Shown: piece after piece, positions 1,295-51,806 of the stretch
How positions within the stretch are numbered: the stretch's first letter is position 1
Layout of the letters: each line of letters starts with the position of its first letter
Assembly: GCA_020199995.1 (NCBI GenBank)
Contig: JAIVJM010000016.1
Location: 10,932 to 74,931 of the forward strand
Length of the DNA: 64,000 bases
Direction of reading: 5' to 3'
Source of the DNA: Acidobacteriota bacterium
GTDB taxonomy: Bacteria > Acidobacteriota > Blastocatellia > Pyrinomonadales > Pyrinomonadaceae
Made by a program: the position numbers and the translations under genes
The notes under the pieces: generated by a model
Databases searched by the model: none
Told to the model about the DNA's origin: nothing
Seen by the model: the letters and a program-made list of their open reading frames with translations, nothing else

Positions 1295-4255
1295 TCAGGG
1301 CGACTGCGCCGCTTTCGCGCTCGCGCCGAGGTTGAGGACGTAGGCGGTCTGGTTCGCGGTGAGGACGAAGAGACGACGGCCGTCGGGGCTGAACTGCGTG
1401 AGCGAGACGGGGCTGGAGAAATTGAACTGGTCGCGCTTCTCCATCGTCGAGAGGTCGTAGACGCTCAACTGCCCGCGCTCGTTCTCGACGCTGAGGAGGT
1501 TCGAGGCCCGCGACGCCGTGGGGCGGTGGCCGAAGAATTTCCCCTTCGGCTCGCCGCCCGCGAGCGCGTAGACCAGCACGCGGTTCTCCGTATCGGCGAT
1601 GACCACCCAGTCGCCCGAGACGAACACGTCCGCGATGCGGAAAGAGCCCTTGCCCGTCTCGACCAGCAAACTCCCCGTCACGCGGCCCGTCCACGAGTCG
1701 AACGTCTGGAGGAAGTAGTCGCCCTCCTTCTCCTTCAACGCCGCGAGCCGCCCGGCGAGCGCCGCGTCAAGTTTGGCCTCGGCCTTGACCGCCTCGGCCT
1801 TGACCGGCCAGGACAAAACCACCGAGCCGTGGTTCTCGTCCACCCACACGCCGGGCGCTTCCTTCGGGAAAGTCTTCGTCCAGAGCGAGGCGCCGCTGCG
1901 CGCGTCGCGCACGTCGAGCGTGATGTTCGACAGCCGGCTCCCGTCCTTGCCGTTGGCCTTGCGCGCGACGAGATAAGGGCCGTGCTGCGTCGCGCTCGCG
2001 TTGCCCATCATCATGTACTCTTTGACTTCGCGCTTCGAGGGGCCGTGCTGCGTCGCGCTCGCGTCGCCCATCTTCATGTGCTCTTTGACTTCGCGCTTCG
2101 AGGGGTCGAGGCGCGCGATGACGCGCTCGGTCTCCTCGTACTTCGGAAAGTCGGCGTAAGTAATCCCGTCGTCGCCCACGTAAGCGCCGCGGAAACCGCG
2201 GACGTGGAGGACGCGCTCGCCTTTGGTCAAATCCCAGATCGCGCCGCGCGTGCGCTCCGAAATAGCGAGCCACCTGAGGTCGGGCGAGACGGCGGCGGCG
2301 CGCAAACGACCCAGAGGGTTGCGCGGCAGCGAGACCTTCGAGACCATCTCTTTCTGCCCGACGCGGTAGAGCGCCAGCTCGCCGTTGACGCGCTCGGAGA
2401 CGAAGAGGTCGCCGTAGCCGTCGAGCGCGGGCTGCTTGTTCGCCATCATGATTTTTTTCGCCGCCAAATCCATAACCCCCACCGCGTATCCCTGCACAGG
2501 CCGGATGAGCAGGTAGTTACCGTGCGTCACCCCTTCAATCGAGCCGACGAGCGGGAGCTGCTCCAGCATGTCGCCTTTGGGGAAGCTCACGATGGCCGAC
2601 TCGCGGAAGTCACCAGGGTTGTGGCCGATGATGCGGTCGGGGCCGAGGAAGGAGAAATTGCGTGAGAGGATTTTCTTGAGCACCCCGCGCGCGGGGACGC
2701 TCGTTTTCGTCGAGAGGTCGAAGATCACCGCCGAGACTTCTTCGCTGGTCGTGTTTATGAGGGTGAAAGAGACGCTCCGCTGCCCGCTCGCGAAGTAGCG
2801 CCCGTCGGGCGAAAATTTCATGCCCACCCATTCGGGCGCGTCGAGCACGTCAATGTCGGCCCCGCCCTCCAGCACGTCCCTGAGGATCTTCATGAAGAGC
2901 ATGCTGATGAGGTCTGAGAAGGGGGGCTTGAAGAAATTCTTCTTCTGGAAAACTTGCGCGCCCGAGGCCACGTCGTAGAGCGAGAGCGCGTAGTTGCCTT
3001 CGAGACAGGCGAGCGTCCCGCCGTCGGGCGCGAGCGCGCTCTGCATGCAGCCGTCTTTGACGTACATCTCGCGCGCGCCCTTGAGCTTCGCCTCATTGAC
3101 GTTCCACGTCTCGACGCGCAACGCCGCGTTGTGCAGCACGATAGACTGCGAGTCGGGCGTGAACTGCGCCGAGAGCGCCTCGGGCGCCTCGATGCGGAAG
3201 AGCGGCGCGAACGGCTCGCGCGTCAGCACGTTGACGCCCGTGTCGTCCAGCGCGAGCACGTACCTGCCGTCGGGGCTGAAGCGCAGGCGCGTCACGTCGC
3301 CGCGCAAGGGGGGCTCCAACTGCTTCCGTGAGGCCACGTCGTGCAGCGCCTCGGTGCGCCCGACGCCCGTGTAGTTGACGACCGCTGCCTGCCAACGCTC
3401 GAACTCGCCCGTCGCGGTCGAGGCGCGCGGGGCGATGCACTCGGCGGGTAGCCCCGACAGGTTCTTGAGAATTTCGCGCAGCCGCCGAGCCTCCGGCTTC
3501 GTCGTGCCGAAGAGGTCTGAGAACCAGCCGCCGGTCTTGCCGCCGGTCTCGGCGAGGCGGTCCCAGAAGGCGGCGAAGGCCTGCGGGTCGTAGCTGGCGC
3601 TCGCCATCGCGTAGATGCCGACCTGATCGGCCTCGTACTGCTCGCGCTCGCCGTGCTTGTCGCCGCGCCGGAAGGCGCCGGGCTTGCGCGCCTCGTTCTC
3701 GATGAGACGGTTGTACTTCTCCAAGATGTCGCGGCGGTCTGTGACCTCTGTGACGCCGAGCACTTCGCGGAGGATGCGCGTCATGTCGGTGGCCGTCTGC
3801 CGCGAGGCGATGTGGCCCAGCTCGTGCGCGAGCACGCCGGCCAGCTCGTCTTCGGTGCGAGCGAGCGCGACGAGCTTGCGCGTGACGTAGATGCGACCGC
3901 CCGGCAGCGCGAAGGCATTGGCTTCCGGCAAGTCAACGAGGAAGAACTGGTAGCGCATCTCTGAGTCGGGGAGCTGGCGGACGAGCGACGCGCCGACGCG
4001 ACGCAGATAGCCCGTCATCTCTTCGTCTTCGACGACGCGGTAGTTGCGCTGGACGTGCTCGGCGATGGCGTCGCCCAAATCCATCTCCTGCCGCGGCGTG
4101 AAGATGTTCTGGCCGCGCGCTGGCGCGGTCACGGCGGGCGGCAGGCAGCGCGAAGGCTTCTGCTGTGACTGCGCCGCGACCGCGAGCGCCGCGGCGCAGA
4201 CGAGTTGCGGCGGAGGCGCAGATGTTACCGGAGAGGCCAGCCGGGCCGCAAACAG
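1295..4255 (-). CDS. Secreted M48-family zinc metalloprotease fused to a very long beta-propeller-like repeat region; start uncertain
   Basis: The HExxH motif sits in LAGVLAHELGHIASRQ with M48-like context (ANAFALPGGRIYVTRKL). About 800 aa follow with recurring SPDGRY/APDGG/SPDLRW segments. The track ORF 1295..5335 over-extends antisense through the PfkB gene. In-frame starts are ATG 4084 and GTG 4132. The signal-like segment LVCAAALAVAAQ lies upstream of both and is preceded only by CTG 4255. Confidence 0.7.
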   Translation of the reverse strand: MFAARLASPVTSAPPPQLVCAAALAVAAQSQQKPSRCLPPAVTAPARGQNIFTPRQEMDLGDAIAEHVQRNYRVVEDEEMTGYLRRVGASLVRQLPDSEMRYQFFLVDLPEANAFALPGGRIYVTRKLVALARTEDELAGVLAHELGHIASRQTATDMTRILREVLGVTEVTDRRDILEKYNRLIENEARKPGAFRRGDKHGEREQYEADQVGIYAMASASYDPQAFAAFWDRLAETGGKTGGWFSDLFGTTKPEARRLREILKNLSGLPAECIAPRASTATGEFERWQAAVVNYTGVGRTEALHDVASRKQLEPPLRGDVTRLRFSPDGRYVLALDDTGVNVLTREPFAPLFRIEAPEALSAQFTPDSQSIVLHNAALRVETWNVNEAKLKGAREMYVKDGCMQSALAPDGGTLACLEGNYALSLYDVASGAQVFQKKNFFKPPFSDLISMLFMKILRDVLEGGADIDVLDAPEWVGMKFSPDGRYFASGQRSVSFTLINTTSEEVSAVIFDLSTKTSVPARGVLKKILSRNFSFLGPDRIIGHNPGDFRESAIVSFPKGDMLEQLPLVGSIEGVTHGNYLLIRPVQGYAVGVMDLAAKKIMMANKQPALDGYGDLFVSERVNGELALYRVGQKEMVSKVSLPRNPLGRLRAAAVSPDLRWLAISERTRGAIWDLTKGERVLHVRGFRGAYVGDDGITYADFPKYEETERVIARLDPSKREVKEHMKMGDASATQHGPSKREVKEYMMMGNASATQHGPYLVARKANGKDGSRLSNITLDVRDARSGASLWTKTFPKEAPGVWVDENHGSVVLSWPVKAEAVKAEAKLDAALAGRLAALKEKEGDYFLQTFDSWTGRVTGSLLVETGKGSFRIADVFVSGDWVVIADTENRVLVYALAGGEPKGKFFGHRPTASRASNLLSVENERGQLSVYDLSTMEKRDQFNFSSPVSLTQFSPDGRRLFVLTANQTAYVLNLGASAKAAQSP
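1977..2102. repeat. Tandem duplication (2 x 63 bp) inside the M48/propeller gene
   Basis: 1977-2039 and 2040-2102 are near-identical. They encode PSKREVKEHMKMGDASATQHG and PSKREVKEYMMMGNASATQHG on the minus strand. Confidence 0.9.
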
Positions 4256-4300
4256 TTTTCCGGCCCGCGCCGGGGCGCGAGAGTCGCGCTTCGGGTTAGA

Positions 4301-5329
4301 ATGTCCCGGCTCTTGCGGCGTGTGATTTTTCGTCGCCGCCGAAACTTTGACTTGTCCGGACTGTTCAAGACCACAGTGCGATTTCCCTTCATCATTCCCG
4401 TCGAGAGAGAGTTCGACGCCGTCGGCTTCGGACTCAACGCCGTGGATCACCTTGTCGTCGTCCCCGCCTATCCGGAGTTCGACACAAAGACCCGCCTCGT
4501 CGAGCACGCGCAGAGCGCCGGGGGTCAGACCGCCTCGGCGATGGTCGGCCTCCAACGCCTCGGGCTGCGGACGGCCTACGCGGGACGCTTCGGCTCGGAC
4601 GAAGAGGGCCGGTTCGGGCTGGAGACGCTCGCGTCCGAAGGCGTTGAAGTGCAGCGCGCCGAAGTCGTCCACGGCGCGCGGACGCAGCTCGCCTTCATCA
4701 TCATCGAGGCGCGCACGGGCGAGCGCACCATCATCTGGGACAGAGACGAAAGGCTCGCCTACCGCGCGGCGGAAGCGCCCGAAGATTTCGCCGCCCGTGG
4801 CCGCGTGCTCCACATGGACGCGCACGACCCCCCGGCGTGCGCGCGTCTGGCGCGTGAGGCGCGCGCGGCGGGAACGATTGTCTCGCTCGACATTGACAAC
4901 ATCTACGCGGGGCTCGACGAACTCCTCCCGCTCGTTGACGTGCTGGTCTCCTCGAAAGAGTTCCCGCGCCGGCTGAACGGCACGGACGACCTCCGGGCGG
5001 CGCTCGTCGAGACGAAGTCGCGGCTTCGTCCCGGCGCGGTCGTCGGCGCGACTCTGGGCGGGCGCGGCGCTCTGATTTATCACGAAGGAGTCTTCATCGA
5101 AGCGCCCGCCTTCCCCGTTCCCGGCGGCTGCCGCGACACGACGGGCGCGGGCGATGCCTTCCACGCGGGCTTCCTCTATGGCCTGCTTCAGGGCGAAGAG
5201 ATCGAAGCCTGTCTCGCGCTGGGCTGCGCCGTCGCCGCGCTCAAGTGCCGCGCCCTCGGCGCGCGCACCGCGCTCCCGACCGCGTTTGAGCTGAACCAGC
5301 TTTTGACGGCGGAAGGCGAGACCTCCTGA
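4301..5329 (+). CDS. PfkB-family carbohydrate kinase (ribokinase-like)
   Basis: N-terminal AVGFGLNAVDH and C-terminal DTTGAGDAFHAGFLYG (PfkB signature 2). The start is ATG 4301 or in-frame GTG 4376. The track start at 4205 is unlikely. Confidence 0.8.
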   Translation: MSRLLRRVIFRRRRNFDLSGLFKTTVRFPFIIPVEREFDAVGFGLNAVDHLVVVPAYPEFDTKTRLVEHAQSAGGQTASAMVGLQRLGLRTAYAGRFGSDEEGRFGLETLASEGVEVQRAEVVHGARTQLAFIIIEARTGERTIIWDRDERLAYRAAEAPEDFAARGRVLHMDAHDPPACARLAREARAAGTIVSLDIDNIYAGLDELLPLVDVLVSSKEFPRRLNGTDDLRAALVETKSRLRPGAVVGATLGGRGALIYHEGVFIEAPAFPVPGGCRDTTGAGDAFHAGFLYGLLQGEEIEACLALGCAVAALKCRALGARTALPTAFELNQLLTAEGETS

Positions 5330-5419
5330 GCGCACCGCTCTCGCACGAGTCTTGAGCCGACGCCGCGATCATATTTATCCACCTTACAAGGACGACACGG
5401 CAAAGGACGACACACAGCC

Positions 5420-6161: not shown

Positions 6162-7142
6162 TCAATCCCCGTAGCCTTGAGGATGCGACTGCATCCACTC
6201 CCAAGCCGATTCGACGATGGCGCGGAGGTCTTGAAACTGTGGAGACCAGCCGAGTTCGCGGCGGATTTTTTCTGAGCTGGCGACAAGGACGGCGGGATCG
6301 CCGGGGCGGCGCGGGGCCGTGCGCGCAGTGATGTCCCGGCCCGTCACGGCGCGGGCCACTTCGATGACTTCTTTGACGGTGTAGCCTTCGCCGCCGCAGC
6401 CGAGATTGTAGACGGCGCTGCGCTCTTCGAGGACAAAGAGGGCGAGGATGTGCGCGCGCGCGAGGTCTACGACGTGGATGTAGTCGCGGACGCATGAGCC
6501 GTCGCGCGTCGGGTAGTCGTCGCCGTAGACTTCGACGTGGGCGCGGCGGCCCGCCGCCGCTTGCAGGACGATGGGGATAAGGTGCGTTTCGGGTTCGTGC
6601 ACCTCGCCGCACGCGGGGGTCGCGCCCGCCGCGTTGAAGTAGCGGAGCGAGGCGGAGCGGATACCGTAGGCTTTCTCGTACCACTGGAGCGCGTGCTCGA
6701 AGGCGAGCTTCGTCTGGCCGTAGGGGTTGGTCGGGACGGTGGGGTCGGATTCTTCGACGGGCTGCTTCTCAGGCTCGCCGTAGGCGGCGGCGGTCGAGGA
6801 GAAGACAAGGCGGCGCACTCCCGTCTCGTTCATCGCGTCGAGCAGGGAGAGCCCGGCGAGCACGTTGTTGCGATAATACTTCGACGGGTTCTCGACCGAC
6901 TCGCCGACGAGCGAGGCCGCGGCCATGTGAATGACGGCCTCCGTCCGCTGCTCCTCAAAAGCGCGTCGCAGGCGCACACCGTCCAAAAGGTCTGCCTCGA
7001 CTAGGCCCGCGCCCCGCGCGACCGCCCCGCGATGGCCTTTGGAGAGATCGTCGTAGACTACGACCTCGTGGCCGTCCTGCAACAGCTCTTCCGTGACGAC
7101 GCTGCCGATGTAGCCGGCCCCGCCCGTGACCAGAACGCGCAT
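6162..7142 (-). CDS. galE: UDP-glucose 4-epimerase
   Basis: MRVLVTGGAGYIGS Rossmann start and YxxxK context (PTNPYGQTKLAFE). An AGGGAG Shine-Dalgarno lies 5 nt upstream of ATG 7142. The track start at 7154 is a GTG inside that SD. Confidence 0.9.
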   Translation of the reverse strand: MRVLVTGGAGYIGSVVTEELLQDGHEVVVYDDLSKGHRGAVARGAGLVEADLLDGVRLRRAFEEQRTEAVIHMAAASLVGESVENPSKYYRNNVLAGLSLLDAMNETGVRRLVFSSTAAAYGEPEKQPVEESDPTVPTNPYGQTKLAFEHALQWYEKAYGIRSASLRYFNAAGATPACGEVHEPETHLIPIVLQAAAGRRAHVEVYGDDYPTRDGSCVRDYIHVVDLARAHILALFVLEERSAVYNLGCGGEGYTVKEVIEVARAVTGRDITARTAPRRPGDPAVLVASSEKIRRELGWSPQFQDLRAIVESAWEWMQSHPQGYGD

Positions 7143-7215
7143 AGTCTCCCTCACAAAATGTCTCGATTTAAAATCTGCCTGATGCTAGCACGCGCCGCCA
7201 TTTCGTGACGACGTA

Positions 7216-7249
7216 AAACAGTAAGCAGTGAGCAGTAAGCAGTAAACCC
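7216..7249. repeat. Heptamer-repeat array (CAGTRAG x4-5); left arm of a split inverted repeat
   Basis: The sequence is aaaaCAGTAAGCAGTGAGCAGTAAGCAGTAAAccc. There is no local complementary partner. The complement lies at 9701-9747. Confidence 0.75.
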
Positions 7250-7543
7250 AGTCATGCCCGAGTTGATTGACTGCCCTTTGTGACTCTGAAACCATCGGAC
7301 AGGGCCTTCAACGACCGTGCGGACATTGACTCCTTCCCCCGCTCGATCTATCGTTTGGTCCACAAAAGAGTCGGACGGTCTTCCTCGCAAGGCTCCCCAG
7401 ACGCGGCGCTCAAATTACCTGAGACGCGCCGACGACGGCACACAACCCAATTAGCACCGGGCAGTGCCGCGTTGATTCACGAACACCTCGCGTCCCTTTA
7501 ACGCCTCGCACCCTTTCACAGCCTCCTCGCAAGAAAGGCACCC

Positions 7544-9076
7544 ATGAGAAGATTTCTCGTCATCGTCCTCCTGCCCGCCTTGACACTGGCCCCTGCCTTC
7601 GGCCAGAGCGTTGACTGGGACGGACGCGGCACAGGGACTAATTTGAAGCTGGATCGGATGGAGCGCAAGTCGTCTTCCAGAAGCAGCAGCAGCGAGCGCA
7701 ACGACAGAGACACCGAAAGTATGTACATCCCTCCGAGCCCGCCCGACCCTCTGCCCGACCTCGTCGGCGGCTATCGCAGCCTGCGAGGATGGTTCAGGAG
7801 CGATTTGTTCCCGGACGCCCCCGGCCTCGTCGAGCCGTCCAACATCTCGGAGCTGTACTGGTCGCTCTCAGCCCTGTCCGACTACGCTGGCGGCAAGCTT
7901 CGGAGCCTGAGATCGAAGGCAGCCGCGCTGAGGTCGCGCCATCAGGAGTTACAGGAACAGTTGCGCCGCGACAGCGACTTCAGCGCGGAACTCGCCCGCG
8001 AGATAGCCGAGATTGAAAGCGACATCGCACGCTCCAGCAGCGAAGCGCGGGAAGTCGAAGGCAAGCTCACGGCGCAGGGGGCGCTGCTCGAACAGGTCAC
8101 GTCCACTTTGAGACGGATCGAAGAGGAGACGAAGGCGAAGAAGGCCGAAGTGTTCCAGAGGCTCAGCGAGGCTCAGCGTCGCGGCGTCATACTGCCGCCC
8201 AGCAGTTACCGCAAGCTGCCGGAGCCGCCGCCGCCGGGCTACCGCCGCTGGGACGAGCCGCGCGCCGGAGTCGTCGCCATCCAACCGAATATGGTCGCGC
8301 CTGAAGCCATACGGGCGTTAGCGCCCGCCTCCGCCGCGCCCTTGAGCGTCAGACCCAGTTTCCCGCTGGCTCCGCTTGCGGCCCGTCGCGGCCCCGTCGG
8401 CGAACACGATGTGCGGCAGAAGATGGCCGAGATCAGCAGTACGATGCCGCTGATCAATGCTGCGACCGTGGCGCTTAACGAGGTCTACCAGCAAGTTGTC
8501 CAGCAGGAACGGCTGGCCGCCGCGACTTCGAGCGCCGTCGGGGCCTTACGCCAGCAGGCCGACACCCTCCACTCCGACCGGGAGAGTTCCGCCAATGCTC
8601 TGAATCAGGCAAAGGGGAAGCTGAGTGATGCCGTCGCCGCCTACCAGCGCCAGAGGGAGAGGCTGCCGCTTCACTGCCTCGAACAGGCTTTCTGGCAATA
8701 CTCCTACAAGAACATGATCAGCATGCTTGAAGTCAAAGAGCTGGCCTCGCAGACGAAGGAGTTGGCTACGGGAAGCGCCGCGGACAGGTACGTCAATGTG
8801 GACATCCCGGAGGGGGTTGAGGCGGCGCTGCCCGACATTGACATCAGAAACGTCCGCCGCGCCAAGAGGGTGATGAATCACATCGTCGAGTTGGGTGCGG
8901 ACACGCAGAAGGTTATCCTGCGCGTGCCCAACGTGTTCAATGACTTGGAGAGGCCGGAAGAACTTCACGCGGCCATGAAGGACGTGGTGAACCGCTTTCA
9001 ATTGAACCTCGCCGACGAGCTGAGCGTCGTACCCGAACCGCTGAAGTGGCTCTTCAACAGTAAGGGGACGCCATGA
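7544..9076 (+). CDS. Hypothetical secreted coiled-coil protein
   Basis: 510 aa. It has signal peptide MRRFLVIVLLPALTLAPAFGQ, a Ser-rich acidic tract (KSSSRSSSSERNDRD), long heptad-like helical regions (ELQEQLRRDSDFSAELAREIAEIESDIARSSSEAREVEGKL) and a Pro-rich linker (LPEPPPPGYRRW). I recognise no family. Confidence 0.6.
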   Translation: MRRFLVIVLLPALTLAPAFGQSVDWDGRGTGTNLKLDRMERKSSSRSSSSERNDRDTESMYIPPSPPDPLPDLVGGYRSLRGWFRSDLFPDAPGLVEPSNISELYWSLSALSDYAGGKLRSLRSKAAALRSRHQELQEQLRRDSDFSAELAREIAEIESDIARSSSEAREVEGKLTAQGALLEQVTSTLRRIEEETKAKKAEVFQRLSEAQRRGVILPPSSYRKLPEPPPPGYRRWDEPRAGVVAIQPNMVAPEAIRALAPASAAPLSVRPSFPLAPLAARRGPVGEHDVRQKMAEISSTMPLINAATVALNEVYQQVVQQERLAAATSSAVGALRQQADTLHSDRESSANALNQAKGKLSDAVAAYQRQRERLPLHCLEQAFWQYSYKNMISMLEVKELASQTKELATGSAADRYVNVDIPEGVEAALPDIDIRNVRRAKRVMNHIVELGADTQKVILRVPNVFNDLERPEELHAAMKDVVNRFQLNLADELSVVPEPLKWLFNSKGTP

Positions 9077-9672
9077 GGCGAAGTGTGCTCGCCGCTTTAA
9101 TTGCACTCGTCGTGCTGGCTGGCGGCGCGGCCTTCTATTACTTCCGGCATCGCACCCAGCAGCCTTTAGCTCGCCCGCTTGCGGGCAGAGAACAGGACAT
9201 ACAATCGTCGAGGGTGGCCGCCGTCCGCGAGACCCCTTTGCCGAATTTGCTGCAACAGCCAGGGCTGGTCAGCCGACGCTTCGCCCCCATGCGCCTCTAT
9301 GTGTCGGTCGCCCCCGAAATCGCAATCAAAAGGACGGACGGCGGCGCGGATTCGTCGAAGGATGAGATACTCGACATAGTGCCGATTCTCATCGTGTTGG
9401 AGAACGACAGCTATCAGGAAGTGGACGCCAGACGAGACCTCAAACTCGAAGGCGAAGAGTTATTCAACGTCTTCGTCACACACTCCGCTTCAGGGATTGT
9501 GTTCCGCCACAGTGAGCCCGCCGTGGAAACAGTCTGGGGGCCTGCCGAGAGGAAAACTTTCAAAGTACCCTGGCAGCCCACGATTGAGTCTTTGCCCGGC
9601 GAGTGCGTCATCTCCATGCGGCTCGCCTTCGGCGGTTCCGACGAAGTACAAATTCGCACCCGCCTGAAGTAA
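9073..9672 (+). CDS. Hypothetical membrane-anchored protein, translationally coupled to the preceding ORF
   Basis: It makes an ATGA start/stop overlap with 7544..9076. There is one N-terminal TM helix (VLAALIALVVLAGGAAFYYF). I recognise no family. Confidence 0.55.
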   Translation: MRRSVLAALIALVVLAGGAAFYYFRHRTQQPLARPLAGREQDIQSSRVAAVRETPLPNLLQQPGLVSRRFAPMRLYVSVAPEIAIKRTDGGADSSKDEILDIVPILIVLENDSYQEVDARRDLKLEGEELFNVFVTHSASGIVFRHSEPAVETVWGPAERKTFKVPWQPTIESLPGECVISMRLAFGGSDEVQIRTRLK

Positions 9673-9700
9673 ACAGTTAAGACGGCTGACCATGCCTGAC

Positions 9701-9747
9701 TCCTTACTGCTTACTCCTTACTGATCACTGCTTACTGCTCACTCTCC
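9701..9747. repeat. Heptamer-repeat array (CTYACTG); right arm complementary to 7216-7249
   Basis: The sequence tccttactgcttactccttactgatcactgcttactgctcactctcc is the reverse complement of the CAGTRAG words. Confidence 0.75.
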
Positions 9748-9828
9748 AATGCTGTCCCGCGCGGGCTGATTGGTGATATAAAAGCCGGGCCGATTTTCCA
9801 ACTCCCAGACACGAAGCGCGAAAGTTCA

Positions 9829-11654
<1,826 letters not shown>

Positions 11655-16780: not shown

Positions 16781-16860
16781 AACACAGTACCGCGAGCGGT
16801 AGCGAGTGGGTTCGGGTGTGGATAAGCTCAACCCGCTCGCTACCGCTCGCGGTACTGTTT
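16781..16860. terminator. Bidirectional hairpin between convergent genes; T-run on the plus strand
   Basis: aacacagtaccgcgagcggtagcgagtgggtt pairs with aacccgctcgctaccgctcgcggtactgtt and is followed by TTTTT. The arms show 7-nt periodicity. Confidence 0.7.
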
Positions 16861-17316
16861 TTATTGGAAGGCTTGCATTACCTCGTCGGCGTGCTGCTCG
16901 ACGTTGACCTTGTCGAAGACTTTCTTAATCCTCCCTTCCTCGTCGATGAGGAAGGTCTTGCGCGCCACGCCCATGTAAGTCTTGTCGCCCCAACGCTGCT
17001 CGCCGTAGACGCCGTAGGCGTCCGAGACGGAATGATCCGTATCGGAGAGAAGCGTGAAAGGCAGACTGTACTTCGAGGCAAACGCCTGATGCGAGGCCCC
17101 GTCGTCGAGCGAGACGCCGAGCACCTTGATGCCCTTCTCTTCGTAATCGGAAGAGGCGTCGCGGAAAGAGCAAGCCTCTTTGGTGCAGCCCGGCGTGTCG
17201 TCCTTCGGATAAAAATAGAGCACCACTTTCTGGCCGCGAAAGTCGGACAGTTTCACGTCTTGACCTTCTGCGTCGCGCGTCGCGAACTCGGGCGCGGCGT
17301 CTCCCTCTTTGAGCAT
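16861..17316 (-). CDS. bcp: Thiol peroxidase / peroxiredoxin Bcp
   Basis: FYPKDDTPGCTKEAC active-site motif; 151 aa. Confidence 0.9.
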   Translation of the reverse strand: MLKEGDAAPEFATRDAEGQDVKLSDFRGQKVVLYFYPKDDTPGCTKEACSFRDASSDYEEKGIKVLGVSLDDGASHQAFASKYSLPFTLLSDTDHSVSDAYGVYGEQRWGDKTYMGVARKTFLIDEEGRIKKVFDKVNVEQHADEVMQAFQ

Positions 17317-21860: not shown

Positions 21861-21863
21861 GAA

Positions 21864-21978
21864 GGGATTACGGATTGCGGATTTCGGATTTTAGATTTCG
21901 GATTATCATTTTCCCACGAGAGACGATGCGCAGATTCTAGACCCGCCCCCGCAAATCCACAATCGCAAATCCGAAACC
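21864..21978. repeat. Heptad-periodic hairpin (GGATTNC words)
   Basis: The left arm is gggattacggattgcggatttcggattttagatttcggattatc. The right arm is gcaaatccacaatcgcaaatccgaaacc. Confidence 0.7.
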
Positions 21979-23207: not shown

Positions 23208-23314
23208 GAAGATGAAGAAGAAATGATGAATGCGGAATGACGAGTGGTGAATAAGAAGGAGCTTGTCCTTTATTCATCACTCATCATTCCGCATTCATCA
23301 TTTCTTCTTCCATC
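23208..23314. repeat. Heptad-periodic hairpin (AATGATG family)
   Basis: gaagatgaagaagaaatgatgaatgcggaatgacgagtggtgaataa pairs with ttattcatcactcatcattccgcattcatcatttcttcttccatc. Confidence 0.8.
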
Positions 23315-23417: not shown

Positions 23418-23723
23418 GTGTTCGAGAGCGACCTGCTTGACCCGTACGAAAAATTAATCTCCATCGAGGTGCTCGGCCAGAGCGTCGAGGTGCCCGAGAA
23501 GAACCGTCTGCTGCGCTGCTTCCAGTATCTCTCGCTGAACACCATCTCCTTCGGCGACTTCTGCTGGAACGGCGAGTGCACCAACTGCCAGTTCTGGTAT
23601 CACGAGCCGGGCGAGTCGGAGGCGCAGGACAAGACCGCGCTCTCCTGCCGCTTCGACGTGCGCGAGGGGCTCGTCGTCACACGACTCAGCCCGCACGTCG
23701 AAATCGAAGGAGTCAACAAGTGA
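23418..23723 (+). CDS. Small (2Fe-2S)-binding-domain-like protein (SoxA/HcnA N-terminal type)
   Basis: 101 aa with a GTG start. It carries the Cys cluster CWNGECTNCQ plus a later SC. The assignment is from motif memory only. Confidence 0.5.
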   Translation: MFESDLLDPYEKLISIEVLGQSVEVPEKNRLLRCFQYLSLNTISFGDFCWNGECTNCQFWYHEPGESEAQDKTALSCRFDVREGLVVTRLSPHVEIEGVNK

Positions 23724-23815
23724 AAGTCAGAAGTCCGCAACGATGAGCGATGAACTGAACGGCACGAGGGCTTTGCTTTCAGTTCATAGTTCATCGTTGC
23801 GGACTTCTGCGTTTC
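23722..23815. repeat. Heptad-periodic hairpin
   Basis: gaaagtcagaagtccgcaacgatgagcgatgaactgaa pairs with ttcagttcatagttcatcgttgcggacttctgcgtttc. Confidence 0.8.
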
Positions 23816-24868: not shown

Positions 24869-25462
24869 ATGGCCGACTGGGACGAGCGTTACCGGCGCGG
24901 CGAGCACGCGACCGACGAGCCGAGCCGCCTGCTCGTGCGCGCGGTCGAGGAGTTCGCGGCTCAAGTCGGAGGTGAAAGTTTCGGGGGCCGCCGCGCGCTC
25001 GACCTCGCGTGCGGCGCGGGCCGCCACGCGCTCTTTCTCGCGGGGCTGGGGTTTCAGGTCACGGCGGTTGACGCCTCGCGCGCCGGCATCGAACTGACGC
25101 TCGCGCGCGCACGCGAGCGAGACCTCAGCGTTGACGCGCGCGTCGCCGACCTCGAACGCGGCGAGTTCATCATCGAAGAAGCGGCTTACGATCTCGTCTG
25201 CGACTTCTACTTTCTCCAGCGCGACCTCTTCCCGCGGATGCGCGCGGGACTCCGGCCCGGCGGCCTCCTCGTCGCCGCGATTCACATGGTTGACGAGAGC
25301 CCGCTGGCGAAACCCATGCGCGATGACTTCCTCCTCCGCACCGGCGAGCTGCGCGAGGCGTTTAGCGAACTTGAAATCCTCCACTACCGAGAGACTGCTG
25401 GGCACGACGACGACGCGGGCGAGCACACGCGGCGCTCGGCGGAACTGATCGCACGACATTAA
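24869..25462 (+). CDS. Class I SAM-dependent methyltransferase (TehB-like size)
   Basis: Motif I is RALDLACGAGRHALFLA. An acidic residue sits at the end of beta-2 (VTAVDAS). 197 aa. Confidence 0.75.
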   Translation: MADWDERYRRGEHATDEPSRLLVRAVEEFAAQVGGESFGGRRALDLACGAGRHALFLAGLGFQVTAVDASRAGIELTLARARERDLSVDARVADLERGEFIIEEAAYDLVCDFYFLQRDLFPRMRAGLRPGGLLVAAIHMVDESPLAKPMRDDFLLRTGELREAFSELEILHYRETAGHDDDAGEHTRRSAELIARH

Positions 25463-25578
25463 AGAGTCAGGAGTCTGAAGTCAGGAGTCTGGAGCCGGAA
25501 AAGCCGTTCCCTCAAAAGGCACGCTCTTCGACGGCGAACTCTTAACTTCCGGCTCCAGACTCCGGACTTCAGACTCTT
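25462..25578. repeat. Heptad-periodic hairpin (GTCWGGA family)
   Basis: aagagtcaggagtctgaagtcaggagtctggagccggaa pairs with ttccggctccagactccggacttcagactctt. The loop is about 46 nt. Confidence 0.8.
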
Positions 25579-25583
25579 ATCTT

Positions 25584-26225
25584 ATGCATGACGTGATTAT
25601 CATCGGAGCAGGCGCGGCGGGGTTGTCCGCCGCGCTGTGGTGCGACGAGCTGGGACTGGACACGCTCGTGCTCGAACAGGGGGCGGAGGTCGGCGGGCAG
25701 CTCCTCAATGTCCACAACCCGATAGGGAATTATCCGGGCGTCGAGGCCGCGAACGGGACGGAGCTGCGCGACCTGTTCGCCGCGCAGGTCGCGGCGACGG
25801 TGACGCTCGTGCACCGCGGCAAGACTCTGGGCGCGCGCCGCGAGTTTGCCGAGAAGATTCAGGGCGACCACCGCATCACCGTCTTCAACGAAGCGACGCT
25901 CGAAGGAATTTTCGGGGGCGAGCGGGTCGAGGCGGTCGAAATCCTCCGGCGCGGCGCGCTCAAGCCGTTCCGCATGGCCGTGCGCGGAGTCCTCGTCCGC
26001 GTCGGCGTCGAGCCGAACGCCGAGCTGTTCGCCGGTCAGGCGCACACCGACGAACGCGGCTACCTCGTCGTCTCGGGCGAGCAGGAGACGAGCGTCGAGA
26101 ACGTCTTCGCCGCCGGAGACATCTCGAACCCGCTCGCGCCGACCGTCAGCGGGGCCTGCGGCGCGGGCGCGACCGCCGCCAAAATCATCGCCTCGCGCCT
26201 CACACTTAAAAGCCGTGAATCGTAA
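25584..26225 (+). CDS. Thioredoxin-reductase-like FAD oxidoreductase lacking the central NADPH/CxxC region (probably non-functional)
   Basis: The N-terminus DVIIIGAGAAGLSAALW...GGQL and the C-terminus VFAAGDISN...GAGATAA are TrxR-like. Only 213 aa are present, and the sequence jumps from AAQVAA directly to TVTLVHRG. Confidence 0.6.
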   Translation: MHDVIIIGAGAAGLSAALWCDELGLDTLVLEQGAEVGGQLLNVHNPIGNYPGVEAANGTELRDLFAAQVAATVTLVHRGKTLGARREFAEKIQGDHRITVFNEATLEGIFGGERVEAVEILRRGALKPFRMAVRGVLVRVGVEPNAELFAGQAHTDERGYLVVSGEQETSVENVFAAGDISNPLAPTVSGACGAGATAAKIIASRLTLKSRES

Positions 26226-26295
26226 ATCGTCAATCGCGAATAGAAGGAATCAGTTCTTTCTTGTCACGATTGACGATTTACGATTCACGGCTTTT
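26208..26295. repeat. Heptad-periodic hairpin (RAATCGT family)
   Basis: aaaagccgtgaatcgtaaatcgtcaatcg pairs with cgattgacgatttacgattcacggctttt. The TAA stop of the preceding ORF lies inside the left arm. Confidence 0.85.
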
Positions 26296-26349
26296 ACCGT
26301 TTGCGTTCGGCGCGTGGCGCTGATACTTTTTCGCGGGACGCTAAGACAG

Positions 26350-26687: not shown

Positions 26688-26775
26688 AAATAATGAACGC
26701 CTATGCGTTGAATGATGAATCAGAAGCAAGCTGTCTCTCTTTCATTCATCATTCAACATTCCGCGTTCATCATTT
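26688..26775. repeat. Heptad-periodic hairpin (AATGATG family)
   Basis: aaataatgaacgcctatgcgttgaatgatgaat pairs with ttcattcatcattcaacattccgcgttcatcattt. Confidence 0.8.
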
Positions 26776-31369: not shown

Positions 31370-31596
31370 GGCTGTCTCGTTCGGTGGAGGAAATTCAAGT
31401 TGTACAGAGCTTTCGTCGGCGTGCTCGGTGGTCGCTTCGGACGGCGCGCGAAAAGGTCTCCGAGAGGAGGGGCGAAAAGGTTCCTCTGCGAAAGTACGGC
31501 GCTGTCGGTTTACTTCCTTTACGTCGGCCCGGAGGATGAGGAAGCGGGCCATCAGGCAGGTCAAAGTATAACAAAACCGTGCCGGCGGTGTCATGC

Positions 31597-31722
31597 AAAA
31601 AGACAGTGAGCTGTGAGCAGTAAGCTGTGAGCAGTAAAGACAATTCGAGATTTGAGATTTCAAATTTGAAACCTCAAATCTTGACATCCTAACTGCTCAC
31701 TGCTTACTGCTTACTGTCTTTT
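31597..31722. repeat. Heptad-periodic hairpin (CAGTRAG family) with a nested inner hairpin
   Basis: The outer arms are agacagtgagctgtgagcagtaagctgtgagcagtaaagac and ctaactgctcactgcttactgcttactgtctttt. The inner hairpin is gagatttgagatttcaaatttgaaacctcaaatct (31647-31681). Confidence 0.85.
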
Positions 31723-32904
31723 CTTCGGCTTGGCCGTCGTCGTCGTGGTCTGCGCGAAATAGCCCTGACGGTAGGTGAGCCGCAGGTTCTGCTTGCGTAG
31801 CTCGGGGTTGACGACCTCAATCTTGAGCTGGCGGAAACTGCCGTCCTTCGCCTTGTTCGAGGATGAGTAGGCGACGAGGTACTGCGAGCGCAGCTCGTCC
31901 TGAATCTGCGCGAAGGCCGAGCGCAGGTCTGATTCGTCGCGCGGGAAGTAGGCGCGACCGCCCGTGCGCTCCGCGATCTTGCGCACGGAGCCTTCGTCCA
32001 CGCCGTCGAAGCTGAAGCTGTCGCCGATGCCGATGGCGTAGATGATGGTGTCGGTCTTCAAGGCCGAGTCAACGGCTTCGGCCAGCTTGAGGCGGCTGCT
32101 CGTGTCCACGCCGTCCGTGAGCAGGATGATGGCGCGGCGCGTCTTGTCGGAGGTCTCGGAGAGAACTTCTCTGGTCGTCACCCAGACCGAATCCCAGATG
32201 GCCGTGGAGCCGGCGCGCGACTGGTTGTCGCCTGAGATGGGCGGCGTGCCGGGGACGACTATCCCGCCGCCGATGTAGCCCGAGGGCGGCGTGAACTCGA
32301 CGCCCTCGATGGCGCGGCGCACGCGCTGGATGCTCCCCGTGAGGCCCAGTTCGAGCGTCGTCTCGCCCGTGAACGAGAGGACGGCGACCTCGTCCTTGCT
32401 CGGGCGGATGACAGTGTCGATGAAGCCGCGCGCGGCGCTCTTCTCTTCGGGCAGCGTCCGCTCCTGCGAGGCGCTGGTGTCGATCAGGATGGCGAGCGAG
32501 AGCGCGCGGTCGGTTTCGCGCTGGAAGGCGAAGACCTCCTGCTGAGTGCCGTCCTCGAAGATGCGAACGTCTTCGCGCTTGAGCGAAGTGATGAAGCGCT
32601 TGTTCTTATCCACCGCCGTGAAGAGGACGTTCGTGAGGTCGGTTTCGACCCTCAAGACGTCGTCGTCAATCGCTTCCGCATCGTCCTGCTTCGATGGCGT
32701 CGCCTTCGGCGCGGGCGTCTGTTGCGGCTGCGCCGACGCGGGCGCGGGAGTCTGCTGCGGCTGCGCCGTTTCGTCTGCGCGGCGCGGGCTGTTGATCTGC
32801 TCCTGCGCGCGCGTCGGCGCGAGCCCGCCGCCCCACGCCCCGGCGAGAACCGAGACGGTGAGCAACAGCGCCAGAGCGCGCCCGACTGTGTAGCGATAAG
32901 ACAT
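31711..32904 (-). CDS. Secreted VWA-domain protein (acidobacterial VWFA-related type)
   Basis: Signal peptide. A Gln/Pro-rich duplicated linker (QPQQTPAP x2). MIDAS motif ILIDTSASQ. The C-terminal motif YFAQ..LTYRQGY is also present in the next paralog. ATG 32904 with a GAGG SD is preferred over TTG 32913. Confidence 0.8.
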   Translation of the reverse strand: MSYRYTVGRALALLLTVSVLAGAWGGGLAPTRAQEQINSPRRADETAQPQQTPAPASAQPQQTPAPKATPSKQDDAEAIDDDVLRVETDLTNVLFTAVDKNKRFITSLKREDVRIFEDGTQQEVFAFQRETDRALSLAILIDTSASQERTLPEEKSAARGFIDTVIRPSKDEVAVLSFTGETTLELGLTGSIQRVRRAIEGVEFTPPSGYIGGGIVVPGTPPISGDNQSRAGSTAIWDSVWVTTREVLSETSDKTRRAIILLTDGVDTSSRLKLAEAVDSALKTDTIIYAIGIGDSFSFDGVDEGSVRKIAERTGGRAYFPRDESDLRSAFAQIQDELRSQYLVAYSSSNKAKDGSFRQLKIEVVNPELRKQNLRLTYRQGYFAQTTTTTAKPKKRQ

Positions 32905-32920
32905 CAAGTTCAAACCTCTA

Positions 32921-33004
32921 AAAATCGTGAATCGTCAATCGTGAATCGTCAATCGTGAAGATAGAAAAACCCGTTCTTTCTGATGACGATTTACGATTTA
33001 CGGC
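32921..33004. repeat. Heptad-periodic hairpin (RAATCGT family)
   Basis: The left arm aaaatcgtgaatcgtcaatcgtgaatcgtcaatcgtgaag pairs with the right arm cgatttacgatttacgg. Confidence 0.8.
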
Positions 33005-38712: not shown

Positions 38713-38797
38713 CAAGCCGTGAATCGTCAATCGTAAATCGTGAATCGGTAACAGAAGTTCTTTCTGTTTACGATTCACGATTTACGATTCACGGATT
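38713..38797. repeat. Heptad-periodic hairpin (RAATCGT family)
   Basis: caagccgtgaatcgtcaatcgtaaatcgtgaatcggtaacagaa pairs with ttctgtttacgattcacgatttacgattcacggatt. The right arm contains the lspA stop codon. Confidence 0.85.
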
Positions 38798-42616: not shown

Positions 42617-43180
42617 TCAGCCGATGAACAACTCATCCTCCGCGTAGGTCTGGTCAATCTGTTTTGGAGTGGGGGCCACGAGCACTTCCAGACCGCGCCG
42701 CACCCCCGCCATAATCGCCGCGATCTCCCGCGCCGGGCTGACGATGCGTGACGTGATGAAGTTGGTCGTGACCATCAGTTGCGTGTGCGTCTCGTCTATC
42801 GAGCGGCTGATCATCTCGACCTTGTCGCGGGCCGTCTCCGCCGAGAAGCCGACGATCTGCTTGAGCTCGCGCACTTCGTCCCTGATGATCGAGGCTGACT
42901 CGGAGAAGTGCATCGAGGCGGTCGCAAGGTGGCCGGACATGATCGTCACCTGCTCGGCGACATCGCGCCCTTGCGCGGCGATCTGGCGCACCTGCTCGGC
43001 GAGCCCGCCCACGCGCTCAAAGAGCGGCTCGATTCTCCGCTCGACGTTTGTCACCGCCCGCACGACGCGGCCCACGACGACGGCCATGACGACCGCCGCC
43101 ACGGCGATCACGACGAAAGAGACGGCGACCACCACCATCACCCAGAACGCCGGATCGTTCGTGCTCATTTGTAGCGCCAT
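42617..43180 (-). CDS. DUF948-domain membrane-anchored stress-type protein
   Basis: It has an N-terminal TM helix followed by a long helical region (VERRIEPLFERVGGLAEQVRQIAAQGRDVAEQV). It is paired with a YtxH-type gene upstream, as is common for this family. Confidence 0.6.
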   Translation of the reverse strand: MALQMSTNDPAFWVMVVVAVSFVVIAVAAVVMAVVVGRVVRAVTNVERRIEPLFERVGGLAEQVRQIAAQGRDVAEQVTIMSGHLATASMHFSESASIIRDEVRELKQIVGFSAETARDKVEMISRSIDETHTQLMVTTNFITSRIVSPAREIAAIMAGVRRGLEVLVAPTPKQIDQTYAEDELFIG

Positions 43181-43184
43181 AACA

Positions 43185-43290
43185 ATTTTCAGTTTCCAGT
43201 TTTCAGTTTTCAGACTTCGGTTTTCGGTTCATGGATTGGCCATCTCAAAGCTGAGATGGCAGAACTGAAAACTGAAAATTGAAAACCGAC
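43185..43290. repeat. Heptad-periodic hairpin (TTTCAGT words) with a nested central hairpin
   Basis: The arms are attttcagtttccagttttcagttttcagacttcggttttcggttc and aactgaaaactgaaaattgaaaaccgac. The inner hairpin is GCCATCTCA-AAG-CTGAGATGGC (43239-43260). Confidence 0.8.
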
Positions 43291-43680: not shown

Positions 43681-43807
43681 AAGAAGGGCAAAAGGAAAAA
43701 GGAAAAAGGAAAAAGTAAGAGAGCCAAGGCGACGCGCGCCGGGCTCTCGCTTCACTCGTCAGGTTCTTTCTTCTACTTTTACCTTTTTCCTTTTTCCTTT
43801 TGCCTTC
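43681..43807. repeat. Heptad-periodic hairpin (GGAAAAA words)
   Basis: aagaagggcaaaaggaaaaaggaaaaaggaaaaagtaagag pairs with ttctacttttacctttttcctttttccttttgccttc. The right arm reaches the stop codon of the next gene. Confidence 0.8.
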
Positions 43808-46103: not shown

Positions 46104-46197
46104 AGAGGCTTGAGGCCTTGAGACTTGAGGCTCAAAACAGCTTGAGGCCGGAGACTTGTTCTTTAACAAGTCTCCGGCCTCAAGCCTCAACCCTCTC
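46104..46197. repeat. Heptad-periodic hairpin (CTTGAGR words) with a perfect 20-bp inner stem
   Basis: The inner stem is cttgaggccggagacttgtt-ctt-taacaagtctccggcctcaag (46141-46184). It is flanked by gagaggcttgagg and cctcaaccctctc. Confidence 0.85.
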
Positions 46198-46842: not shown

Positions 46843-47271
46843 TCTCGGTCGTTCTCCATGTGAGCTGTCGGCCTGTTGCTCAGACGCCGGGCCGGCGACG
46901 ATTGCATCAACACTGATGCAAGGGTTTGGGGGCTACGCATGGTGGAAACGATCTGCCTTGCACTACTCAAAGAGCAGCCTATCGAAACCGAGAGTAAGAT
47001 GGGCGAAAGGCTCAACCAGTTGCTTTTAGCGCACGGAAACTGTGCATTTAAGTGCTTTAAATGTACGTATTTAAATCAACCAACCCTAACTGTTGACAGG
47101 GTAAAATTTGTCCCCCCTATCGCGCATCATGAACGACCTTTTTGCAGCCTCGCGAGTGCCCCCGCGTACCGAAGGGAGACAAAAATCGTCTGCTTGCCGT
47201 AAAAAAATTTACGGTTCATTTTGACGTAGCGGACGCGAACGCTTTAGTCCGCATCGTAGTTTTCAGCCCTT

Positions 47272-47299
47272 TTGCACATCGCGGATTTGCCCGTATAAT
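47272..47299 (+). promoter_or_regulatory. Candidate sigma-70 promoter for the FmdB-type gene
   Basis: TTGCAC (47272-47277), a 16-nt spacer and TATAAT (47294-47299), 50 nt upstream of ATG 47349. Confidence 0.45.
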
Positions 47300-47348
47300 T
47301 TCGTTCGAGAGAATCACACTCGAAGCGAAAGAGGCCGACGAAGAGATT

Positions 47349-47702
47349 ATGCCCATTTACGAGTACAGCTGTCAGAAATGCGGGGCGCACCTCGAAGTCA
47401 TGCGGAAGATTACGGACAAGCCGCTCGCGCGCCACCCGAAATGCGGCGGCAAGCTCTCGAAGGAATGGTCGCAGACGAGCTTCCAACTGAAGGGCTCGGG
47501 CTGGTACGTGACGGATTACGCCGGGAAGAAGCAGGACTCGAAGGAGAGCGCGGAGGCGAAAACCGACGCCGCCGAAGCGAAGACGACCGAGGCCCGGAAG
47601 ACCGACGGCGGAGAAAAGTCGGAGAGCAAAGTCGAGAGCAAGGCGGAGGCTAAGAAGACCTCGAAGAGTTCCGCCAAGGCCGCGCCGAGCGGCAAGGACT
47701 AA
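47349..47702 (+). CDS. FmdB-family zinc-ribbon protein with a Lys/Glu/Ala-rich tail
   Basis: MPIYEYSCQKCG...HPKCGG...SGWYVTDY. Confidence 0.85.
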   Translation: MPIYEYSCQKCGAHLEVMRKITDKPLARHPKCGGKLSKEWSQTSFQLKGSGWYVTDYAGKKQDSKESAEAKTDAAEAKTTEARKTDGGEKSESKVESKAEAKKTSKSSAKAAPSGKD

Positions 47703-47724
47703 CCCACTACCGGAAGCGAGCAAC

Positions 47725-48630
47725 ATGCGCGCGCCACATAAACTCTTAAGTTGTCTCTTCGCCTGCGGCCTCCTCGCCGGGCTCGCCGCCGGGCAGGCCG
47801 GGCGGCGGCCCGACGCCGCGAGCACGATGCGCGAGCGCTTCGTCTCGCTCAATCTCTACGCCTCGCGCGCCGACGGCTCCGACACCCCCGTCACCGCCAA
47901 AGACGTTGCGCTCTACGACGCCGGGATGGAACAGGCCATCCAGAGCTTCACGCCCGACCCCAGCCCCGCACACATCGTGCTCCTCGTGGACAACTCGCTC
48001 GGACTGCGGGCCGACGTCGAGAAGCTGCAACAGGCGACGCGCGAGTTCGCCTACGAAATCTATGAGGGCGATCAGGTGATGGTCATCGGCTACGACCAGA
48101 ACGCCGAGATCATCTCGGACTGGACGGACGACGCGAAGAAGATTGAGCAGGCGCTGCCGACCTTCCGCAAGCGTGGCGAGCCGCATCTCTTCGACGCGCT
48201 CGCCGCTGTCTTGAACGACGCGCTCGTGCCCTTCTCGGCGCGCACGCGCAAGCGCGCCGTCGTGCTCGTCGCCGACGGCCTCGACCGCGGGAGCAAGTCC
48301 CACTTCGACGACATCCTCCGCACGCTTCAGGCGCAGGACATCACCGTCTACGCGCTGCAAATCCCCGACCGCACGGGCGGGGCTCTCAGGCGCGACCGGC
48401 TCAAGCCCGCGCAGGTCATCCAGAAACTCGTCGAAGGCACGGGCGGGCGCGTCCTCTCCGTCAATGAGCCGCGCGAGGCCGCCAAGTCAGTCTGCGACGA
48501 ACTGCGCCGTCACCGCTACGTGCTCTCATACACGCCCGCCTCAGTCCCCTTCTTCGGCACACGACGCCTCCTCGTCCTCCCGAACGAAGGCGTCAACGTG
48601 CGCCACAAGCTGGCGCATCCGGGGCAGTGA
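47725..48630 (+). CDS. Secreted VWA-domain protein (third paralog)
   Basis: Signal peptide. A MIDAS-like LLVDNSLGL. The same overall order as 31711 and 32998, and a C-terminal YVLSYTP motif. Confidence 0.75.
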   Translation: MRAPHKLLSCLFACGLLAGLAAGQAGRRPDAASTMRERFVSLNLYASRADGSDTPVTAKDVALYDAGMEQAIQSFTPDPSPAHIVLLVDNSLGLRADVEKLQQATREFAYEIYEGDQVMVIGYDQNAEIISDWTDDAKKIEQALPTFRKRGEPHLFDALAAVLNDALVPFSARTRKRAVVLVADGLDRGSKSHFDDILRTLQAQDITVYALQIPDRTGGALRRDRLKPAQVIQKLVEGTGGRVLSVNEPREAAKSVCDELRRHRYVLSYTPASVPFFGTRRLLVLPNEGVNVRHKLAHPGQ

Positions 48631-48824
48631 AAGCTGCCGCCTGAAGCTGCCGCCTTCCAAAACACAGAAGGGATGTGCGGCGCGTACGAGTCGTAGATAA
48701 AAGAGCCTGTAACTGAGCCGTTGCAGTTTGTCGCGTCGCGCGAGCTACACGGTGGGAGGGGCGCGGAAGGTTATAAACCGGGATGGCGCCGAGCACGGAG
48801 CGGAACTTTTTGACTGCGTTTCCC

Positions 48825-50111: not shown

Positions 50112-50153
50112 TTGAGATATTTTGTTGAATTCCAGGACGGCCCATAACAGACC

Positions 50154-51797: not shown

Positions 51798-51806
51798 ATC
51801 GCACTC

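Follow-up and report, generated by a model that had tools for sequence, protein, structure and literature searches.

A two-gene unit inserted between complementary heptamer arrays at a conserved galE–amidohydrolase junction in a Pyrinomonadaceae genome

Introduction

Long palindromes are unstable in Escherichia coli, where they are cleaved by SbcCD, and insertions occur at the palindrome center. Intergenic palindromes of the repetitive extragenic palindromic (REP) and bacterial interspersed mosaic element (BIME) types serve as insertion targets, and elements of the IS110/IS1111 family enter REP or attC hairpins. Here we describe a locus at which a two-gene cassette, comprising open reading frames (ORFs) 1 and 2, lies between two complementary arrays of tandem heptamers (arms A and B) that probably once formed a single hairpin. 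The locus is situated between galE and an amidohydrolase gene in a 64,000-nucleotide stretch of DNA (hereafter, the window; contig JAIVJM010000016.1, positions 10,932 to 74,931 of the forward strand), which has a G+C content of 64.6% and is assigned by protein matches to a metagenome-assembled genome (MAG) of the Pyrinomonadaceae (Acidobacteriota). Loci from related genomes are designated by L and a number.

The locus resembles the E. coli insertions in that an AT-rich, near-perfect palindrome appears to be interrupted at or near its center, with both arms left intact and the hairpin or cruciform abolished; it differs in that the insert is a functional two-gene unit of 2.4 kb in a natural genome, and in that a break-and-repair step is something we infer. 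As with REP and BIME sequences, abundant intergenic hairpins would act as landing sites, and in one close copy of the cassette (L081) an IS110-family element abuts the last heptamer unit; however, the arms in the window are tandem heptamers of many units with no single REP consensus, and the insert is not an insertion sequence (IS).

In cyanobacteria, short tandemly repeated repetitive (STRR) sequences are intergenic tandem heptamers in direct orientation, and eukaryotic foldback (FB) transposons have long inverted termini made of short tandem repeats, which sometimes enclose genes. The likeness of the window locus to foldback transposons is one of form only, there being no target duplication, transposase or second copy. 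Direct heptamer repeats of the TAACTGA type in Beggiatoaceae, Cyanobacteria and Bacteroidetes include one inverted pair among 170 sets (PMC4679880). The arrays considered here share with TAACTGA and STRR arrays a period of 7, a mostly intergenic location, forward units with stops in three frames and a possible overlap with gene ends; but whereas those arrays are direct, 160 of the 198 AT-rich period-7 arrays that we found in about 1.3 Mb, comprising the window and 87 related loci, pair clearly with a local partner and form an arm of a hairpin. Integron cassettes with attC sites are alike in that genes are bounded by imperfect hairpin-forming repeats, but the window arms lack RYYYAAC/GTTRRRY cores (the nearest, GTTAAGA at 9676–9682, fails at the last position), the window cassette has its own promoter, and the arms enclose a single cassette, whereas an attC site follows each cassette in a series. 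No integrase occurs in the syntenic neighborhood, and the syntenic flanks in L089 contain housekeeping genes only. Heptamer-armed hairpins of Acidobacteriota, and this class of repeat as such, were not described anywhere in the literature searched.

Results

Two complementary arrays without local partners

The genes and repeats are arranged in the order galE (6162–7154, reverse strand), arm A, about 300 nt of non-coding sequence, ORF1, ORF2, arm B and the amidohydrolase gene (9829–11583, forward strand). Arm A (7216–7246, forward strand), which separates the galE promoter box from the cassette, consists of about four tandem CAGTRAG heptamers and reads AAACAGTAAG CAGTGAG CAGTAAG CAGTAAA. Its complement, arm B (9696–9747, forward strand), is situated downstream of the ORF2 stop codon and upstream of the amidohydrolase promoter box and consists of about six tandem heptamers, reading CTCCTTA CTGCTTA CTCCTTA CTGATCA CTGCTTA CTGCTCA CT (approximately 9696–9747), in which CTYACTG alternates with CTYACTC to yield a super-period of 14 nt. 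An inverted-repeat search of the window paired 7219–7245 with 9711–9737 (27 nt, 93% complementary) across 2465 nt, and the longest exact match between arm A and the reverse complement of arm B is about 13 nt. A pattern search for (CAGTRAG)x3 with up to three mismatches returned only four sites in the window, where 0.01 would be expected by chance: 7219–7246 (forward), 9696–9744 (reverse), 31604–31638 (forward) and 31689–31716 (reverse). The latter two fall within an intact CAGTRAG/CTGTGAG hairpin (31597–31722) that holds a nested ATTTGAG palindrome in its loop.

The original prediction, which was made from the window sequence alone, held that the array at 7216 has no local partner and that its complement lies downstream of the two genes, and both statements are borne out. 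Local folds of the two arms have z-scores of +1.4 to −1.1 relative to shuffled sequence, whereas the intact hairpin, which the prediction had also recognized, folds at z = −11 (31590–31730). All AT-rich period-7 arrays in the window have a reverse-complementary partner within 300 nt or are themselves palindromic (31643), except for those at 7216 and 9692, which have local scores of 5–7 and a mutual score of 21. The description of the arms as lone needs a qualification for arm B: neither arm has a significant local fold, but the end of ORF2 (AGTAAACAGTTAAG, 9668–9682) can pair weakly, over about 12 bp, with the initial units of arm B (9668–9712, forward strand; not significant against shuffles), and the pairing stretch is in part the conserved end of ORF2 (..CTG AAG TAA).

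When joined in silico, the arms form a hairpin of −40 to −43 kcal/mol (z about −5), a potential that they have lost in their present arrangement. Like the heptamer hairpins of Pyrinomonadaceae, each arm contains at least three AT-rich heptamers and the two are mutually reverse-complementary, with a complementarity not below that of intact hairpins (82–95%); but at 2465 nt apart they are far beyond the 4–90 nt that separates the arms of a foldable hairpin. Arm spacings elsewhere in the window had been put at 17–50 nt, which is roughly right, the measured range being 4–57 nt.

The galE–amidohydrolase junction in relatives

As a comparison set, we used 80 amidohydrolase loci from Pyrinomonadaceae genomes, in about 17 of which galE, on the reverse strand, directly adjoins the amidohydrolase gene, on the forward strand, across a spacer of 200–580 nt. 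No homologue of ORF1 or ORF2 occurs near the amidohydrolase gene in any of the 80, nor at this site in the three closest relatives. These closest relatives (L088, L089 and L090, with amidohydrolase identities of 80–82%) retain the wider gene order, i.e., a 234-aa gene, galE, the amidohydrolase, a 148-aa gene and GH31, and their junctions are empty. Their nucleotide homology to the window ends at 7192–7199 and restarts at 9767–9768, delimiting a lineage-specific segment (7200–9766) that includes the cassette and both arms, with the arms just inside its two ends. The sequences that border this segment are native to the junction: a conserved galE-proximal box, GATGSTAGCACGCGCC (7181–7199), and a conserved amidohydrolase-proximal spacer beginning TGATTGGTGATATAAAAGCCGGGCCGATTTT (9767–9828, forward strand), the latter probably representing the amidohydrolase promoter and 5' untranslated region. 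The DNA between the arms is an insertion relative to the conserved galE–amidohydrolase junction, with limits that can be placed to within tens of bases.

Several of the empty junctions hold hairpins of their own. The spacer of L090 contains an intact short-loop hairpin with AAAAGGT/AAAAGGC units, and in L089 the hairpin units are GGATGAA-like and the loop encloses a nested (ATTTGAG)x3 array; the L088 spacer contains GC-rich filler. Heptamer hairpins also occur in the spacers of the more distant L027, L028 and L073, and most other relatives have none. The window arms lie between the same conserved boxes as the hairpins of L090, L089, L027, L028 and L073, and such an intact hairpin recurs at the junction, though with a unit that varies. 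The comparison of junctions suggested in the original prediction therefore recovered both an empty site and short-loop hairpins in five relatives, though none of them is of the CAGTRAG type.

This spacer is also a recurrent spot for gene insertion within the family. A single gene, encoding a small secreted protein and preceded by a promoter-like box of its own, occupies it in L019, L023 and L045. In L078 the spacer holds a DUF1697-like gene, and two and four genes are present in L022 and L034, respectively. Unrelated genes also occupy the spacer in L058, L060 and L047, the number ranging from one to at least four across lineages, and no heptamer arms were seen around the genes in any of these loci.

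The cassette

The two predicted genes are present as described, preceded by about 300 nt of non-coding sequence: ORF1 (7544–9076, forward strand) encodes 510 aa and ORF2 (9073–9672, forward strand) 199 aa, with an overlap of 4 nt. The ORF1 product looks like an exported coiled-coil protein. Its N-terminal hydrophobic segment, as judged by eye in the translation, resembles a signal peptide; a Ser-rich region is also present, and the coiled coil rests on weak SMC/LmuB-type matches. The ORF2 product, whose hydrophobic N-terminus is, again by eye, like a transmembrane helix, is apparently a small protein anchored in the membrane. Searches of Pfam, NCBIfam, PADLOC and PDB sequences for curated families, defense models and solved structures returned only coiled-coil noise for both, and there were no Rfam matches in window positions 7100–9900 or in L081.

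The pair recurs in Pyrinomonadaceae at 39–85% identity, its members always together: ORF2 is always translationally coupled to the ORF1 homologue, and all ORF2 homologues end, as does that in the window, in ..RTRLK-stop. The neighbors of the pair differ from locus to locus, and in one MAG the pair (L082) and the amidohydrolase gene (L067) are on different contigs. None of six other contexts of the pair has AT-rich heptamer arrays around it.

Every ORF1 homologue is preceded by the same promoter-like box, which in the window is TTGACT-17-TATCGT (7326–7354, forward strand) and which occurs also in L082, L084, L085, L086 and L087. We considered TTGACTG at 7268 as a degenerate arm or as a −35 box and rejected it, the promoter common to the homologues being that at 7326–7354. 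The non-coding stretch upstream of this promoter (7247–7325, forward strand) is common to L081, at about 88% identity, and to no other context. As delimited by these comparisons, the inserted unit spans promoter to stop codon, with at most about 80 nt of additional DNA at the left and about 26 nt at the right.

The composition of the cassette is atypical. An enrichment in AGA, AGT, TTG and ATA codons, first noticed by eye, is upheld by counting (39 of 709 cassette codons vs. 217 of 13917 in the 31 other genes of the window; odds ratio 3.7, p = 2e-10), and the G+C content at third codon positions (GC3) is 0.80 in ORF1 and 0.71 in ORF2 vs. 0.846 ± 0.056 in those 31 genes. In other genomes the GC3 of the homologues is close to that of their neighbors. 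The deviation fits acquisition from a relative of lower G+C content.

Close copies of the cassette

The copy in L081 is 88% identical in nucleotide sequence over window positions 7240–9384, and the homology sets in precisely with the final heptamer unit, CAGTAAACCC. Leftward of this unit come about 400 nt of non-coding sequence and then an IS110-family transposase gene (PF01548 + PF02371; L081 1–1258). The contig ends inside the transposase gene and inside ORF2, such that neither galE nor arm B is visible. The heptamer arrays may be a target of this IS family. A related IS110 copy is located at the end of L073 (1–258).

A second copy, in L091, is 92% identical over window positions 8915–9160, and its contig ends in ORF2. 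There, ORF1 has been cut to about 50–70 residues by a fragment of an IS6/IS240-family transposase (L091 7937–8456, and also a JGI contig carrying P0133); ORF2 is intact in this copy (L091 and the JGI contig). The close copies of the cassette are thus in IS-rich surroundings, and none includes the right-hand junction.

Heptamer hairpins at large

In the window and 91 loci (about 1.4 Mb), we detected 98 heptamer hairpins. Their arm spacing is 11–90 nt in 85 and 94–200 nt in eight, of which six were folded, all six with nested palindromes in the loop. Spacings of 953 and 1350 nt are cross-matches between separate complete hairpins, and those of 369 and 623 nt are special cases in which an extra arm, one or more genes and a complete hairpin follow one another. 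Such an arrangement is found in L048, L069 and L013, where it may stem from local duplication or from an insertion inside an arm. Campbell-type integration, with direct-repeat arms around the insert, would fit these three loci and not the window. Of the 98, only that in the window, with its 2465 nt, is built of two lone arms: a search of this 1.4 Mb for other gene-sized segments bracketed by complementary arrays, which the original prediction had proposed for the rest of the genome, came back empty.

The loops of heptamer hairpins take up DNA, in that nested palindromes are frequent in large loops and polymorphic in the hairpin 3' of the amidohydrolase gene. This hairpin belongs to the GATGAAY family in the window, L088, L089 and L090, and a nested GAGATTTCAAA palindrome is present in L088 and L090 and absent from the window and L089. 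Outer hairpins of different kinds hold a small ATTTGAG/CTCAAAT palindrome in their loops (window 31643–31671; L089 7850–7880; L088, approximately 3830–3865; L090, approximately 3130–3170). This distribution, together with its presence in L088 and L090 but not in the window or L089 at the orthologous hairpin 3' of the amidohydrolase gene, suggests a tiny element that targets hairpin loops.

At least 12 intergenic spacers of the window hold an AT-rich hairpin with tandem-heptamer arms: 11568–11654, 21863–21960, 23214–23310, 23722–23815, 25452–25595, 26207–26296, 26703–26775, 32919–33002, 38714–38797, 43180–43286, 43684–43806 and 46105–46195. The units are varied, including GATGAAT, CGTGAAT, GAGTCAG, TTTTCAG, AAAAGGA and others. 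Period-7 units containing TGA, TAA or TAG yield stops in all three frames, and the stop codons of upstream genes can lie within the first units of an array, e.g., the amidohydrolase TGA in (GATGAAT)n (window 11568–11613; L048 4229–4253 and 4568–4600). Hairpins of the same family occupy successive intergenic spacers in L054 (GGTGTTG; 1488–1543, 2809–2886 and 3750–3826) and L056 (GATGAGT; 2391–2507 and 3353–3440), suggesting local spread or gene conversion between adjoining hairpins.

Other repeats and regions of the window include a palindrome family not made of heptamers (CAGTACCGCGAGCGGTAGCGAG...), with members at 16781–16861 and in the distant relative L048 (4295–4365), the latter in the stretch that separates an extra heptamer arm from a complete hairpin of that arm's family. 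A further palindromic family is represented at 514–722 by a cluster of nested inverted repeats built on AAGCCCCTGATAAGGGGC, and a 63-nt unit is tandemly duplicated (95% match) at 1977–2105, inside a long ORF (1295–5335, reverse strand). A gene block with low GC3 (47142–57477; 0.71–0.78 vs. about 0.85–0.9 elsewhere) may be a further acquired region.

Discussion

Probable splitting of a resident hairpin by an insertion

The probable explanation for this locus is that a resident hairpin was split by insertion of the ORF1/ORF2 unit between its arms, which are now relics. Under this scenario, the galE–amidohydrolase spacer would once have carried an ordinary heptamer hairpin of the CAGTRAG type, and a self-contained transcription unit, extending from promoter to ORF2 stop codon, would then have entered between the arms, in or beside the loop. 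The arms, now 2.45 kb apart, would no longer be able to pair and are most likely decaying; because arm A is upstream of the cassette promoter, the arms lie outside the cassette transcript. Insertion into a pre-existing hairpin was one of two possibilities raised in the original prediction, and it gains support from the empty junctions of relatives, five of which have intact short-loop hairpins made of other units. It needs only one event, and it accounts for the arms at the edges of the lineage-specific segment, for the hairpins at empty sites and for these being the sole lone arms in the window. Also in its favor are the hairpin obtained on joining the arms, the deviating composition of the cassette, the occurrence of the gene pair with its own promoter at array-free loci, and, as independent evidence, the uptake of DNA by the loops of other heptamer hairpins.

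The most plausible route of entry would be a break at the AT-rich center of the palindrome, with a fragment captured during repair. SbcCD-type cleavage targets long palindromes, and the extrusion of a cruciform would have been favored by negative supercoiling, the palindrome being located between two divergent promoters. Alternatively, the insertion could have been that of an element which targets hairpin loops. A likely consequence of the insertion is that transcription from the cassette promoter would read through into the amidohydrolase gene, since arm B alone forms only the weak 12-bp stem.

Several observations weigh against the splitting of a resident hairpin. No relative has a CAGTRAG hairpin at the empty site: the units differ, and the state before insertion is therefore reconstructed by analogy. 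In other lineages, unrelated genes have been inserted into the same spacer without arms, so gene insertion here does not depend on a hairpin. Of the arrays, the 88%-identical copy in L081 retains a single heptamer unit, beside an IS110 element. The exact junctions are not defined more closely than 7239–7325 for the left edge and 9673–9698 for the right, and the right junction (ORF2–arm B–amidohydrolase) is present in one MAG assembly only. Misassembly through the arms is unlikely because their exact match, at about 13 nt, is probably shorter than typical assembler k-mers, and the left junction is independently confirmed by L081.

Alternative explanations

A different possibility is that the arrays arrived with the incoming DNA, as the ends of a foldback-like mobile cassette or one bounded by terminal inverted repeats (TIRs), which transposed or recombined into the spacer. 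In favor of this, the arms mark the extreme ends of the lineage-specific segment, the cassette occurs together with at least one heptamer unit in two genomes (the window and L081), and close copies are associated with IS elements; inverted repeats at the segment ends are one of the features by which transposons are recognized. The others are missing, there being no target-site duplication, no transposase and, in the window and the related loci, no second array-bounded copy. No direct repeat lies outside the arms, and the best candidate for a target-site duplication, CATGCC (as CATGCCYGA) at their inner edges, was rejected as not significant (p = 0.08–0.16). The cassette and its syntenic flanks contain no transposase or recombinase, the pair has no AT-rich arrays in its six other contexts, no second arm-bounded gene segment turned up among the 98 hairpins, and orthologous empty sites already hold hairpins. 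Moreover, the arrangement in L081 is equally well explained by an IS110 element having inserted into arm A of the same orthologous insertion. That the arrays are the terminal repeats of a mobilizable cassette, the other possibility raised in the original prediction, consequently finds no support, and we regard an origin with the incoming DNA as improbable.

We also think it unlikely that the pairing is fortuitous, in which case two neighboring CAGTRAG hairpins or arrays of the same family would each have lost, or never had, their inner arm. There is precedent for the components of such a coincidence: about 10% of arrays have a partner of the same family within 6 kb (e.g., three in L054, two in L056, and window 32923/38715), a similar share of those in relatives (about 10%) are without a clear local partner, an extra arm followed by a gene and a complete hairpin is seen in L048, L069 and L013, and arm B has its weak local stem. 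However, it would require not only neighbors of the same family but two independent arm losses that retained exactly the outer arms, and the observed array rates put its frequency at about 5e-4 for a pair of spacers and about 0.02 for a window. Nor are there remnants of the inner arms: the candidate before arm B, AGTAAACAGTTAAG, is largely the conserved ..K-stop end of ORF2, and that near arm A proved to be ordinary upstream sequence. Still harder to credit, and in our judgment very improbable, is that the arrays are functional, either as inversion sites for the 2.45-kb segment or in long-range RNA pairing. The 27 nt of 93% inverted identity, and the fact that the arms have not decayed below the complementarity of intact hairpins, are compatible with a function, but the longest exact match is only about 13 nt and there is no invertase or site-specific recombinase in the cassette or the flanking genes. 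Inversion would not switch the cassette because its promoter is internal to the segment, and the position of arm A, upstream of the promoter and beside the divergent gene, means that no single predicted transcript includes both arms. The complementarity that has been kept matches the neutral decay expected over the 12% divergence to L081.

Implications for heptamer hairpins and genome change

Taking the splitting of a resident hairpin as our account, the locus is a gene insertion into a palindromic intergenic repeat that reflects one evolutionary event and not a new mobile element; as a single locus, it is an evolutionary scar and not a working device. A broader proposition is that the heptamer hairpins are more than terminator-like relics and that their loops or arms are preferred integration sites, for small palindromes, IS110-type elements and occasional gene units, or are foldback-like carriers, of which the window, L048, L069 and L013 would be samples. 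We consider this doubtful; if true, it would represent hairpin-targeted gene insertion, a process undescribed in bacteria.

The locus provides a natural before-and-after pair, with a hairpin in relatives and a gene unit between the arms here, which dates the gain of the genes and maps it to tens of bases. As such, it is a further indication that these abundant hairpins admit foreign DNA into their loops. If hairpin centers are indeed preferred entry points, this class of repeats would be linked to genome plasticity in a major phylum of soil bacteria.

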